This document shows positions 8,547-17,446 of a DNA stretch of 24,813 nucleotides, one piece after another. Location: the IMG/VR virus record IMGVR_UViG_2529292921_000026, one strand, 5' to 3'. The position numbers and the translations under genes were made by a program. Below the pieces are notes generated by a model, which made no database searches, had not been told where the DNA came from, and worked only from the letters and a program-made list of their open reading frames with translations. How positions within the stretch are numbered: the first letter of the stretch is position 1; the number at the start of each line of letters is the position of its first letter. Source of the stretch: a virus. Lineage: Duplodnaviria; Heunggongvirae; Uroviricota; Caudoviricetes.

Positions 8547-8631
8547 TTCTGCCATTCCGGGACGTTACACTGTTCAGGCACCTTATAAAGCGGGTGCCGG
8601 GATTGGCGTCCTGAAATTGATTACTGAGCAT

Positions 8632-8653
8632 AACCGCGCTCATGCGGTTTTTT
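8632..8653 (+). terminator. weak terminator-like hairpin plus T-run (tR-like)
   Basis: AACCGC(8632-8637)-GCTCAT-GCGGTT(8644-8649) followed by TTTT (8650-8653), within the 600-bp stretch between the CII-like and Rha-like genes. Confidence 0.3.
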
Positions 8654-8823
8654 CGTGTCATGAGCATTGCTACGCCCAAATTATGGTGGGGCGTACAGGG
8701 CCGACTTCGGTCGGGCCGGGTTCGGTAGTCTCCGGTAACGCCAACCCTGTACGTCTCACCACCTCTGTGATTGGCGTCCCATGTGGTGAGTTTTCTGAAA
8801 AACTGACTACCGGGGCTGTCACC

Positions 8824-11082: not shown

Positions 11083-13537
<2,455 letters not shown>

Positions 13538-14092
13538 TCTTTTGCCCGTCCATATTCAACGGCTTCTTTGAGGAGTTCATTTTCCATCGTTTTCTTGCCG
13601 AGCAGGCGCTGGAGTTCTTTAATCTGCTTCATGGCGGCAGCAAGTTCAGAGGCAGGAACAACCTGTTCTCCGGCGGCCACAGCAGTAAGACTTCCTTCCT
13701 GGTATTGCTTACGCCAGAGAAATAACTGGCTGGCTGCTACACCATGTTGCCGGGCAACGAGGGAGACCGTCATCCCCGGTTCAAAGCTCTGCTGAACAAT
13801 TGCGATCTTTTCCTGTGTGGTACGCCGTCTACGTTTCTCCGGCCCTAAGACATCAATCATCTGTTCTCCAATGACTAGTCTAAAAACTAGTATTAAGACT
13901 ATCACTTAAATAAGTGATACTGGTTGTCTCGAGATTCAGGGGGCCAGTCTAGGTGTGAAAAGCAAGCGTGCGAACGGAAGTAGATGGCAATTCATTGCAT
14001 TACTTCAGAAAAACTTTTTCAGGAAACGAGCTAAGGGCGTCAACCAACGCCCTGTAGCATAAGCTCAGGCACCGGATGCCGTTTTACAGGCT

Positions 14093-14824
14093 TCACCTGC
14101 CATCCAGAAGATGTCCCGACCAACGACTGCAACCATAATTACGTTGACCTGAACCGTCATGCAGCTTCGTTTCATTTTTCACGAGATAACGGGCTCTCTC
14201 CAGGGCTTTCTGCATCGCTTCTACATCACCACGCTTGATCCAGAGAACAGCGGCTTCACCAGACTTTTTGTCTGAAGCCTTCCTGGTATCAGAACATCCA
14301 CCCGACAAAGGCGTGTCATCGGAAGAAGGGCGAGCATCAGACGATGCTGGTTTACGGGAAGGCGTCCACCTGGAAAAATGGACTAGGCCATCGCCTTGCC
14401 AGGGCTCAAGATGCAGGGCGCTGCACCATGCCTCCTGGATCATCGTCGCCAGCGAAGACGGTTCGCTGAAATCCCCGAGCGAGCACCAGGTATCTTTGTT
14501 GAGCAGTAATATTACGTGATAATGTTTCCTGCCATACATCTTGCCGAACTCCCGGCACCAGAAATAACCCAAGCTGGTTGCATGCACACGCTGATTGGCA
14601 CATCTTTTTTTCCGCTGGTAAGCCTGAATTTTGGCTTTCAGGGATGCAAAAAAACGAGAAATTACCGCTGAATCCGGATCGGGATCCATGATGGTGACAG
14701 GCATATACTCAGGGAAACGTAAATCCTCCCGGATTAACGAGACGGCACGGTGCTGCGACAGAGCACTGTCGAGAAGGCTGTCAAAACGGGATAACCAGTA
14801 AGCATTGTGTATTGGTTGATTCAT
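14093..14824 (-). CDS. inovirus Gp2-like protein (YfjJ/YagK family of CP4-type islands)
   Basis: 243-aa ORF (MNQPIHNAYWLSRFDSLLDSALSQHRAVS...). The N-terminus and context match the yfjJ/yagK family as I recall it. The start faces the AT-rich region. Confidence 0.5.
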   Translation of the reverse strand: MNQPIHNAYWLSRFDSLLDSALSQHRAVSLIREDLRFPEYMPVTIMDPDPDSAVISRFFASLKAKIQAYQRKKRCANQRVHATSLGYFWCREFGKMYGRKHYHVILLLNKDTWCSLGDFSEPSSLATMIQEAWCSALHLEPWQGDGLVHFSRWTPSRKPASSDARPSSDDTPLSGGCSDTRKASDKKSGEAAVLWIKRGDVEAMQKALERARYLVKNETKLHDGSGQRNYGCSRWSGHLLDGR

Positions 14825-16315
14825 GATGAGAGATCTCCGTTGATTTGGATTGACTTCACATCATTAATCACCGCGGTAAAACTTTACGGCATCCGGCATT
14901 GAGCAATGCTACAACTCTCTGATTAAGAGTGATTGAAACGGAACAAACCATCCCGGAACGAAAAGATAATCCTACACGCAGGGTAAAAACACTCAAGAAC
15001 AGCGAATGGATTTAAAAACGACATGGACAACGAGAAAAGTCAGAAGGGAAAAGGATCCACAGAACATTCGAACAAAACACCAGAAACGCAACCAGAACGC
15101 TTCCTGGTAATGCAAATCAACAACAACCCCAAAACCTACAGCTTAATCACACAACTCAATCACGGATGCGAATGACACGTTTAAAACCTGTTTACAGATA
15201 ACGCCGTTACACGATCATCCCCATCAGAATCGATTTTCCCTTCCGGAAAGCGTTATGTTTCACTACGCACCATAAAAACGATTAACCATCGATAACGTAA
15301 ACTTCATCTGAATCAAAACTCCAAAACCGTTCATCACACTTTCGCAATGCAAGAAGAAACCTCATGACGAAAGCAATAACCTTACACGGAAAAGAAAAAC
15401 GTCAGGAATCGTTAATGCCTCAATCTGATTGTTATCAAAACATCCAGAAAGTCGTTTAACAGAATCGTCGTAAGTATATCGAAAAGAACGTCAGATTACT
15501 TCAGGAAAGTTCGGGTTGATTTAGCGTAAAGATACTTTTCTCATGCCAACGTCGAAACTCGAAATCTCAGGAAAGGTTAAACGTAACATCAGTAAAATTG
15601 AATAGCAGATTGATTGCTGAAGCAGAAAGGTTTTACAGCAGCATTAAACTGATTTAGTTAACGTAAAGATTTACTAAACTGGATGTGTATAGCAATGCTT
15701 AACGAAAACACTCGTAGAAGTGTTTATGAAAATACGTGTATAACACTTACTGAAATGCTTAGTTAAATACGTGTATATAGTATCATACCGACATTAGCAA
15801 CATTCTCAGACACTCATGCAGACTGAATGTTGATTACCCGTTTTCACATCAGGCATGGTTCTTTACTGACCAAAAAACAAACTGGTTTACTCTTGAATTA
15901 TTTTCTCTACCTCAGAAAACATGGTCTCAGGAATCTGCTATGGTTTCATAGTTTCTGTTGTTTTTTCATAAAAGTTATAAGTCATTGTCATAATCATACG
16001 ATAATCACTTTATGTTAGTTTTTACTGTCACACGCTACTGACTTTTTCAGTCATTGCCAGAAAGGGGCTCTTTTTACTTCCATTTCACCACTCAACAAAT
16101 GCAAAACTTGTCCAGTAAAGCGGACCACCTCTTGCTCACAAGCAACGAATCATCTCCAGGAACAGCCCTCAAACATTGCAGAAACAAAAACAACAAAACC
16201 CTCATTATCACTGATGTTCGGAAAATTTCCCGGAACAAAAAAACGAAAACAAAATGAGACGCATTATCATTAATGTAGTCAAAAAGACGTTATGGTGGCT
16301 TTCAGTTAAATGGTA
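14825..16315. other. 1.5-kb AT-rich, A-biased region without convincing ORFs, containing short direct repeats
   Basis: No ORF of 60 aa or more on either strand across 14825-15826, and only two low-complexity ORFs after that. Direct repeats TGATTTAG..CGTAAAGAT (about 15517 and 15650) and AAATACGTGTATA (15730 and 15766), and a hairpin AAACACT-CGTAGA-AGTGTTT (15705-15724). Confidence 0.4.
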
Positions 16316-17446
16316 CTATTTCTCATAAATCCACTTAACTTTTTTTACTGATTCATCCCAGATAACCACTTTATCAGTAAAAAATGAATTATATAGATTG
16401 ACGAGTTTTTCTGTTTCAGTTATTCCCAATGTATTATGTATCAGTTGTAGATATGCTTTTATCCAGATTTCTTTACCCTCCCTCCACTTATCTATAAAAC
16501 TTTCCAGCTTACTTAATCGTTGATTTATAAAAAACGAATCAATATCATGAAAAAGCTCAACAAGAAAACAGCACGAGACAATCTCAACAAAAAACAAATT
16601 CTCCTTAAAAGTATTATAAAACCTTATCAACACATAACGAAAAACACCTCCTGTTAATCTTTCCTGTTCATAAAACAACAAACCAAAAACAGGAGGAAAT
16701 CTTTTAACCACACCACTTTTAATCCAGTAAGGATGATGATTAGTCTTTACTGGCAGTGAATAAAAGAACAATTCGGTTTCTCTTTTCCCACCACAAACAG
16801 ACAAAACTGTCTTATAAAGACTTTTTGAATCATTATGTCCTGATACCCCAGACGAATTAGCAGAGTATTTTCTTTTTACTTTTTGCCTTAATGGAGCTGG
16901 AAGAATAATAAAACGGGATGGCAGATAACAATCGCTTTCAGAAGACCGGCATTCGCACACATGAAGATTTATATTTACATCCGGACAATTCAAAAACCAC
17001 ACAGAATAATTATCGCACCGTTTGCAATATGAAACCCATGAATAAATTGCATAAAGTTCAGAAAGCGCATCTAACTCTGCTTTTGAATTAAATGTGATAC
17101 CGTTTCTTCGAATTCTCGTTTCCAGCGTTCTCCATGCCGGGGTTTTCAGTATCTCACGAACTTTTTTATTAAGTTCAGCCAGAGATGGTCCCTGCTCCTG
17201 TTTATGTTTCGTCCTGCTGTTAATGATTTCTCTTTCTTTTACTAATTTCCTCTTTCTTTTTGGGCCTTCTACCTTTCTTGGCAATGCTTCATTTAATCTG
17301 TGAACAGGATTTTGCTCTCTTCTTTTTTTGAGCTCACAAAACCTCTCATAATGTTTTCTGCACAGTCTTTTCTCCACTGCCATTTTTACTGAGAAAACCT
17401 GATTGTTACAATTTTTTCTGACACATTTGTTTTTACGTCCGGTCAT
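16316..17446 (-). CDS. uncharacterised 376-aa protein: Lys/Arg-rich N-terminus with Cys clusters (zinc-ribbon-like) and an aromatic-rich C-terminal domain
   Basis: ATG at 17446 has AGGAG 8 nt upstream. N-terminus has C-x4-C ... C-x2-H-x4-C (KCVRKNCNN...LCRKHYERFC), with a second cluster YCKRCDNYSVWFLNCPDVNINLHVCEC. Codon usage is AT-rich and foreign-looking. No family recognised. Confidence 0.5.
   Translation of the reverse strand: MTGRKNKCVRKNCNNQVFSVKMAVEKRLCRKHYERFCELKKRREQNPVHRLNEALPRKVEGPKRKRKLVKEREIINSRTKHKQEQGPSLAELNKKVREILKTPAWRTLETRIRRNGITFNSKAELDALSELYAIYSWVSYCKRCDNYSVWFLNCPDVNINLHVCECRSSESDCYLPSRFIILPAPLRQKVKRKYSANSSGVSGHNDSKSLYKTVLSVCGGKRETELFFYSLPVKTNHHPYWIKSGVVKRFPPVFGLLFYEQERLTGGVFRYVLIRFYNTFKENLFFVEIVSCCFLVELFHDIDSFFINQRLSKLESFIDKWREGKEIWIKAYLQLIHNTLGITETEKLVNLYNSFFTDKVVIWDESVKKVKWIYEK

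Follow-up and report, generated by a model that had tools for sequence, protein, structure and literature searches.

What does a genomic island keep in 1.5 kb of DNA that contains no gene? The question is raised by positions 14825-16315 of the IMG/VR record IMGVR_UViG_2529292921_000026 (24,813 nucleotides, the whole of which we call the window), which run from the ATG of the minus-strand gene for Gp2, a protein of the YfjJ/YagK family, to the stop codon of a minus-strand gene of 376 aa. The window is E. coli DNA, and the gene-free stretch sits in the backbone of a tRNA-associated CP4/PAI-type island, with the divergent Gp2(YfjJ)-AlpA-type module on one side of it and the cargo slot/GTPase module on the other. 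A preliminary description, made from the sequence alone, gave the coordinates and the placement between the yfjJ-like and 376-aa genes correctly; it also took the 1.5 kb for a single unit, and instead we find a mosaic of four segments. About 150 bp of it (15690-15835), set in filler, may act in cis as a DNA site for Gp2, a Rep-like protein, either an origin-like element with a binding and a nicking (nic) locus or at least an operator, a reading to which we give a probability of roughly 0.42. Among the explanations offered in the preliminary description, a binding-site array for the adjacent regulators fits best, for these ~150 bp and not for the whole 1.5 kb, with the HUH protein Gp2/YfjJ as the likeliest partner; overall, that earlier interpretation is partly supported.

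A Conserved Repeat-Plus-Motif Core Upstream of Gp2

Of 5,426 complete E. coli genomes, 1,878 have a megablast match to the region (full length in 407), and it directly abuts the Gp2 gene start in every inspected locus. Annotation over the region is almost absent, with a few records calling a short hypothetical protein there. Scanning metagenome contigs for a pattern anchored in the first, invariant block of the stretch added 120 loci, and the combined set contains 88 distinct sequences; the same kind of scan of viral contigs returned no match. One carrier of the module, together with an E. coli-type Gp2 gene (94% aa identity), is a metagenome-assembled genome labelled “Bacillota bacterium” (L012, JAEYLX010000008.1), probably a mis-binned enterobacterial contig.

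The core consists, in this order, of an iteron-like array with a variable number of copies, an invariant block and an imperfect inverted repeat, which we propose to be its functional parts. The array is a tandem direct repeat of 35 nt on the plus strand, with two copies in the window (15707-15741 and 15742-15776) that are 74% identical; the repeat unit is AACACTyryngaArTGyTTAkkwAAATACGTGTAT, ending in AAATACGTGTAT-type words (AACACT...AAATACGTGTAT). Tandem Repeats Finder reported nothing here at score 30; that the repeat is real follows from its copy number, which varies from 1 to 5 among homologous islands (one copy in some of the class B islands described below). The AAATACGTGTAT repeat of the preliminary description is therefore genuine, with a spacing of 35 nt and not 36. 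A second repeat noted there, the pair TGATTTAG..CGTAAAGAT, does occur in two copies (83% identical), but they are 137 nt apart, not 133, and the pair is weak. Within the window, the repeat words are confined to this array, and we therefore rejected regulator sites elsewhere in it.

Directly 3′ of the repeats is the block TATAGTATCATACCGACATT (15776-15795, plus strand), which includes CCGACA at 15788-15793. This block is nearly invariant in 32 representatives, and it is a candidate recognition/nick site, or promoter core. Adjoining the motif is the imperfect inverted repeat AACATTCTCAG-N13-CTGAATGTT (15799-15831), with a predicted DNA fold of -5.5 kcal/mol; in 22 variants the fold ranges from -0.1 to -6.4 kcal/mol, and these include an apparent T-A to C-G compensation as well as disrupted variants.

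The neighboring Gp2 gene (14093-14824, minus strand; RefSeq name “inovirus Gp2 family protein”) encodes 243 aa that match Pfam PF11726 (YagK_YfjJ_C, E=6.8e-34) and, weakly, REP_ORF2-G2P. Its HUH and YxxK motifs are conserved, with H100, H102, Y212, and K215 invariant, and its predicted model is closest in fold to the origin-binding nuclease domains of adeno-associated virus (AAV) Rep/NS1 and RepB. Judged by these motifs and the modeled fold, Gp2 is a Rep-class HUH endonuclease. Sequence searches with Gp2 gave no match in PDB (phmmer) or NCBIfam and a family of unknown function only in PHROG; its sole “phage” match is an unverified, low-coverage contig of 4.5 kb. Rep-class HUH proteins (AAV Rep, RepB of pMV158, and the Rep of geminiviruses and circoviruses) bind tandem direct repeats beside their nick site. 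The E. coli protein of 243 aa also has a Ser/Pro-rich insert of ~50 aa (residues 152-188), predicted to be disordered (predicted local distance difference test score, pLDDT, <50), which is absent from the Gp2 homologues of 189-205 aa in other genera.

We inspected the regions upstream of distant Gp2 homologues, none of which can be aligned with the E. coli region. In Providencia, AACACATA occurs three times and is followed by TATATCCGACAT upstream of the Gp2 homologue; in Jinshanibacter, five tandem units of 36 nt starting with AACACTC are followed by AAACCGACAAT, upstream of a Gp2 that is 38% identical. Both arrays precede homologues of 38-47% identity and have the same orientation to Gp2 as in E. 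coli, that is, the AACACW repeats and CCGACA are on the strand antisense to Gp2. The distance from the last AACACW to CCGACA is 30-46 nt in E. coli, Providencia, and Jinshanibacter, and the distance from the site to Gp2 is 66-440 nt in the other genera. Two metagenome lineages have CCGACA without AACACW repeats (GGTATACCGACAT and CTATCCGACAC). Of all 6-mers containing three or more G/C, CCGACA alone is common to five of six diverged Gp2 upstream regions in the same orientation; among 500 dinucleotide shuffles, 5 attained such sharing. Two plasmids, one from Klebsiella and one from Pseudomonas, likewise have CCGACA upstream of their Gp2 genes, and in the Pseudomonas plasmid it falls within a 10-bp hairpin (-10.9 kcal/mol).

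Under the proposed mechanism, Gp2/YfjJ would bind the core as its cognate site and possibly nick it there (we infer the nick, and likewise its strand), and the core, with its binding and nic loci, would serve the replication or mobilization of the excised island. The pairing of a common, uncharacterized HUH family with a conserved repeat-plus-motif site would be new. Going further, the YfjJ and YagK proteins of common CP4/PAI-type islands may be active HUH nickases with the iteron array and TATAGTATCATACCGACATT as their origin, an unrecognized Rep-ori (or relaxase-oriT, oriT being the origin of transfer) pair; this we put forward tentatively, as possible and still rather improbable. If the nickase/origin reading is true, the conserved strand bias of the flanking DNA would record which strand is habitually single-stranded.

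Several observations weigh against a Gp2 site. Because we noticed the motif only after the fact, the shuffle frequency of ~0.01 is optimistic. Of the eight lineages examined that are non-E. coli or plasmid-borne, five have no AACACW repeats; CCGACA is absent upstream of the yfjI-yfjJ-type arrangement (L147) and of the 188-aa Gp2 type (L001b), and it is inverted upstream of K-12 yagK. The hairpins beside the motif are weak and inconsistent between variants. In E. coli, the site is ~960 nt from Gp2 in class A islands and ~1.8 kb in class B islands, where a gene on the opposite strand lies between them. Segment III, which holds the core, has no similarity to plasmid regions outside copies of the island itself: a blastn search (word size 11) against 72,556 plasmids gave three matches, all of them copies of this island, and thus no support for mimicry of a known plasmid oriT. 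Finally, constraint on Gp2 is relaxed, with a nucleotide diversity (pi) of 0.049 at codon positions 1+2 vs 0.088 at 4-fold sites, and the module could therefore be decaying.

A Four-Segment Mosaic Around the Core

We drew segment boundaries from alignments and BLAST architectures, and the four segments differ in their histories. Segment I (14825-14977) is the Gp2-proximal non-coding block, common to all island classes and almost invariant near the Gp2 start: pi is 0.004-0.07 over 14825-14899, under the 0.088 of the 4-fold sites. It contains the ribosome-binding site and presumably the proximal promoter/5′ untranslated region of Gp2. Segment II (14978-15304, plus strand) is the most A/C-rich part of the stretch, a G-poor filler found only in class A islands, with 36-46% A and 12-20% G per 100 nt and a pi mostly at or above the neutral level. 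In class B islands, which make up about one quarter of the distinct sequences, segment I alone (q1-153) is kept beside Gp2, and segment II is swapped for 1.2 kb bearing a plus-strand gene of 175 aa; blastn and tblastx found no residual similarity between the two alternatives. This gene (175-176 aa, WP_000778605-like) is located, for example, at 671-1198 in L081 (module coordinates), 2616-3146 in L139, and 2417-2947 in L140, and is frameshifted in L138; the sole similarity of its product is a weak NikA-like match (E=0.05).

Segment III (15305-15905), non-coding as well, is kept in class A and also in class B (q480-1081, in 27 class B loci). Segment IV (15906-16315) is the 3′ flank of the 376-aa gene and moves with the cargo, not with the Gp2 module. 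In islands with different cargo, homology stops at ~15905. Segment IV is 98-100% identical in L006, which has the same 376-aa gene, and 84-98% in L011, and falls to an unalignable 37-50% in loci with other cargo; conserved only where the 376-aa gene is present, it belongs to the cargo. The gene content from the end of segment III to the GTPase gene varies from island to island, which identifies this interval as a cargo slot, and the slot of these islands can be delimited by these two landmarks.

Segments II and IV and much of segment III are AT-rich filler evolving at about the neutral rate. Over 741 pairs of islands, the median Jukes-Cantor divergence of the non-coding module (positions 100-1080) is 0.166, as compared with a median of 0.153 for synonymous divergence in the adjacent Gp2 gene; the mean nucleotide diversity of the module is ~0.12, vs 0.088 at the Gp2 4-fold sites. 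The blocks with a pi clearly under the 4-fold value are few: 14825-14899, 15275-15299, 15575-15599, 15675-15699, and 15775-15799 (pi 0.046). The last three correspond to low-pi sub-blocks of segment III (15575-15600, 15675-15700, and 15775-15800; pi 0.046-0.054). Thus the bulk of the 1.5 kb is free of sequence constraint, and short islands within it are constrained.

As the preliminary description had it, the stretch is AT-rich with an A/C-biased plus strand. The GC content is 0.335-0.41, which satisfies the AT-richness expected of xenogeneic DNA bound by H-NS and is compatible with the H-NS-silenced region suggested there. Around 14800-15400, the AT skew reaches +0.38 and the GC skew -0.26 (in the flanking genes, to 14799, |AT skew| is at most 0.17), and certain 100-nt bins of the plus strand have 46% A and 10-14% T. 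Strand bias recurs in the unalignable upstream regions of Providencia (6-7% G on the antisense strand), Pseudomonas, and Klebsiella. We rejected three compositional explanations: an island-wide strand-specific mutation bias (the 4-fold sites of neighboring genes are unremarkable), curved DNA (there are 20 A-tracts vs 12.8 ± 2.8 expected, without helical phasing at 10-11 bp), and a CsrA-type GGA sponge (14 GGA vs 12 ± 2.4 in shuffles).

Other Explanations for the Stretch

A distal sigma-70 promoter on the minus strand (TTGAGA/TTGCTA ... TGTCGG ... TATGAT/TATATA) could occupy the same place as the proposed Gp2 site, with the repeats as its operator sites and a leader of ~950 nt (U/G-rich, C-poor, and Rho-resistant) running into the Gp2-AlpA-type operon; we consider this doubtful, and it is the best of the alternatives. 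The candidate is CTGAGA-16-TATGAT at 15782-15809 (minus strand, read from 15809), which points to Gp2, but promoter-like sites are fewer in the region than in shuffles (3 vs 4.4 ± 2.1), and the match is for that reason not evidence by itself. In E. coli, Providencia, and a further lineage (L144), TTGnnn precedes TGTCGG by 1-3 nt and AT-rich -10-like words follow, and the orientation of the motif relative to Gp2 is constant in most lineages; the spacing of the hexamers, however, differs between lineages. A long C-poor leader would explain the strand bias too. Rho loads at C-rich, G-poor rut sites, and the recurrence of a C-poor sense strand in upstream regions that cannot be aligned fits selection against such loading. 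In the leader itself, a G.U-compatible change in a hairpin at 14894-14907 favors a minus-strand RNA (assessed by eye), but the leader has no conserved structure and evolves neutrally. The class B islands also argue against a distal promoter: their 175-aa gene on the opposite strand, which has a terminator-like hairpin of its own, separates the site from Gp2, and since only segment I (153 nt) is kept beside Gp2 in all classes, the working promoter is suggested to be proximal.

Still less probable, and in our judgment unlikely, is a functionless spacer: AT-rich xenogeneic DNA, probably coated by H-NS, left by repeated exchange of cargo, in which the conserved words are promoter or terminator fragments or hitch-hikers and the repeats are slippage-prone simple sequence. 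Mean divergence at or above the synonymous rate is what such a spacer would have, as are the abundant indels and the segments swapped or missing as a whole in other islands; yet blocks of 20-25 nt are nearly invariant amid a background pi of 0.12-0.24, and the repeat and CCGACA arrangement is found in other genera where nothing else aligns. Providencia and other genera have just 215-490 nt between Gp2 and the upstream gene, which suits a dispensable spacer, but deletion bias should purge 1 kb of such DNA, and it persists in the 1,878 genomes and in island lineages that have diverged by 20-25%. The low GC content and the H-NS paralogues encoded nearby in these islands agree with xenogeneic silencing; against this, the unphased A-tracts are unlike curved H-NS nucleation sites, and the strand bias is kept without sequence conservation.

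An RNA gene is very improbable, whether a long non-coding RNA, which the preliminary description had suggested and which might be an A/C-rich plus-strand RNA, or a short minus-strand RNA from the conserved block, perhaps a ProQ/FinO partner. The composition is strongly strand-asymmetric, a ProQ/FinO-family gene is present in the same backbone, and the minus strand has a 7-bp hairpin and then UUUUCGUU at ~60-75 nt downstream of the candidate promoter. However, no part of the region matches an Rfam family at the gathering score or at E<0.1 (the best match has E=0.11), and in the alignment of the 32 representatives the structure-conservation index from RNAalifold stays at 0-0.39 on both strands across every 120-nt window past the invariant first block; on these two results we rejected a structured RNA. 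In addition, the plus-strand RNA barely folds (-8 to -15 kcal/mol per 120 nt), conservation of the hairpin is lacking, and the substitution rate is about neutral. The hairpin that the preliminary description placed at 15705-15724 does exist as a 7-bp palindrome, AAACACT-N6-AGTGTTT, inside the first repeat unit, but most variants carry uncompensated changes in the right arm, and the structure is therefore not conserved.

The stretch is genuinely non-coding. No open reading frame (ORF) of at least 60 aa occurs on either strand between 14825 and 15826, in agreement with the ~1 kb described before, and two occur beyond it on the plus strand (63 and 67 aa; 15827-16018 and 16054-16257). In 64 class A homologues, stop-free runs extend to at most 62-110 codons vs a shuffle median of 80, which is the random expectation for this composition, so the oddity of the locus is the 1.5-kb gene-free gap and not a lack of internal ORFs. 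In the small-ORF screen of the 32 representatives, no ORF of more than 16 aa keeps its frame, and ORFs of at least 20 aa are intact in at most 31%; the best-kept small ORF, with a GTG start and 15 aa (15699-15746, minus strand), is inside a conserved block and intact in 72%. These counts, with the tests that follow, led us to reject a coding or pseudogene reading. Remnants of former protein-coding cargo, which the preliminary description had also considered, are hardly credible: the site adjoins a cargo hotspot, class B has an intact gene exactly at the position of segment II, and the Prokaryotic Genome Annotation Pipeline (PGAP) occasionally calls short hypothetical proteins in the region, but the 64 class A sequences have no period-3 substitution signal, the lengths of 753 of the 845 pairwise indels are not divisible by three, segment II resembles nothing in its class B replacement, and the six-frame translations matched nothing in Pfam at E<=1 and, as a concatenated query of limited search sensitivity, nothing among 5.8 billion proteins at E<=0.01, so that the BLASTX-type remnants of known genes named beforehand as a refutation were not observed. 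Annotators can label most of the 1.5 kb as non-coding spacer, neither a missed gene nor an RNA gene.

Comparison With Known Origins and Islands

The proposed Gp2 site would work in the manner of an oriT or of the double-strand origins of rolling-circle replication used by Rep-class HUH initiators (pMV158 RepB, the AAV Rep-binding element and terminal resolution site, and the iterons with a nonanucleotide stem-loop of geminiviruses and circoviruses). The site and these origins both have a gene with HUH and YxxK motifs beside a non-coding region, and in both, tandem iterons are tens of nt from a short conserved word and vary in copy number between relatives; the HUH initiator here retains the catalytic Tyr, iterons are found near its gene, and the modeled fold of Gp2 is nearest to the nuclease domains of AAV Rep/NS1 and RepB. 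There are also differences. The E. coli site has no convincing hairpin presenting the conserved word, it is 1-1.8 kb from the initiator gene and not directly upstream, and its repeat unit is 35-36 nt as compared with 8-22 nt. Moreover, the element here is an integrated island of tens of kb, and its Gp2 has no fused helicase domain.

Many pathogenicity-type islands carry only an oriT, near which defense and anti-defense genes cluster (Ares-Arroyo et al., bioRxiv 10.64898/2026.01.13.699239). Similar to these iOriT islands, which have no conjugation genes of their own, the island studied here is a pathogenicity-island-type element with a putative non-coding cis site, an inverted repeat beside a conserved word (15799-15831, imperfect and kept in many, not all, of the 22 variants), and defense cargo and anti-defense genes (antirestriction, DUF932, and RadC) close by. 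Unlike them, its segment III has no plasmid similarity apart from island copies, and similarity to an oriT of a helper element was not found among the 72,556 plasmids, a comparison outside which lie the oriT families of integrative and conjugative elements and the Ares-Arroyo profiles. In addition, since the candidate nickase Gp2 is encoded alongside, the island would be a relaxase-carrying mobilizable element and not an oriT-only one. O157:H7 86-24 has the module once, in an island beside KpLE2-type genes (a partial N-acetylneuraminate mutarotase), a location that we take to be the leuX region. That copy is not in the TAI islands with a reported oriT (bioRxiv 10.64898/2026.01.13.699239). The MOB_M relaxases of the same preprint are tyrosine-recombinase-like and not HUH proteins, hence unrelated to Gp2.

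The site also shares features with the ori of Staphylococcus aureus pathogenicity islands (SaPI) and phage-inducible chromosomal islands (PICI) and with P4 ori/crr: an island of the integrase/AlpA type, iterons in AT-rich non-coding DNA near a replication gene, and variation of copy number and sequence between island lineages. Those origins, however, are bound by helicase/primase-type initiators (SaPI Rep and P4 alpha), not by HUH proteins, and a YfjI/DUF3987-type protein is not adjacent in most of our loci.

Horizontally mobile Pseudomonas islands transduced by a jumbo phage have intY, alpA, RadC, YqaJ, and an “inovirus Gp2-like” core gene, and this Gp2-like gene is listed among the likely core functions with an unknown role (bioRxiv 10.1101/2024.08.29.610337). 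They have the same kind of backbone as the island in the window (AlpA, RadC, Gp2-like, a helix-turn-helix (HTH) protein, and defense cargo), a likeness of gene content. No cis site or non-coding region is described for them (bioRxiv 10.1101/2024.08.29.610337), and the repeat-plus-motif site of E. coli is described in neither preprint (bioRxiv 10.64898/2026.01.13.699239; 10.1101/2024.08.29.610337).

About one third of complete E. coli genomes have islands with this backbone (YeeP/YfjP GTPase, WYL, DUF932, antirestriction, RadC, CbtA/CbeA, and YfjJ/YagK), and the cargo of these islands is of the virulence and anti-phage kinds. If the proposal is true, a ~150-bp site and an HUH Rep-like protein would give the y-ome genes yfjJ and yagK a function.

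Neighboring Genes and Related Loci

The 376-aa gene (16316-17446, minus strand) occupies the slot that varies between islands, in which other islands have a gene of 407 aa or plus-strand genes of 262-345 aa. Its product has no match in Pfam, PADLOC, PHROG, or NCBIfam, and the gene, AT-rich itself, is a candidate for an uncharacterized defense gene. To its right, plus-strand genes encode a YeeP/YfjP-like GTPase, a WYL/HTH regulator, DUF905, DUF932, an antirestriction protein, RadC, and CbeA/CbtA. At the other edge of the slot, TTACTCTTGAATTAT (15886-15900) provides the last conserved words ahead of the cargo junction. It recurs as TTACTCTGGAATTAT at ~1664-1680 of the upstream region of L146, a Klebsiella IncFIB/HI1B plasmid, upstream of a Gp2 gene that is 38% identical, and could represent either another conserved site or the boundary of the exchangeable slot.

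Providencia has its Gp2 gene opposite a divergent GTPase/DUF932/antirestriction module, a layout suggesting that insertions into a simple divergent promoter region gave rise to the order seen in E. coli. In L135 (3661-5570), the GTPase and Gp2 genes are just 449 nt apart, with no cargo in between; in L141 (1828-4588), a gene of 255 aa intervenes and the gap is 489 nt. The islands that carry the E. coli module also contain a second Gp2-type gene (188-189 aa), which likewise has unannotated A-rich DNA upstream, 1.0-1.4 kb long (7245-8621 in L001 and 6057-7089 in L134); this DNA cannot be aligned with the module and lacks CCGACA.

Directly downstream of the Gp2 gene in the window are istA/istB of an insertion sequence (IS) of the IS21 family (11320-13121, plus strand) and an IS3-family OrfA remnant (13495-13905, minus strand), from which it follows that the operon of intact islands, Gp2-191aa-HTH (AlpA-like), is truncated here. 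Farther left, in the phage/P4-P1-like part of the window and unrelated to the spacer, two gathering-level Rfam matches are found side by side on the plus strand: isrK (8578-8654, 59 bits) and C4 antisense RNA (8679-8766, 82 bits).

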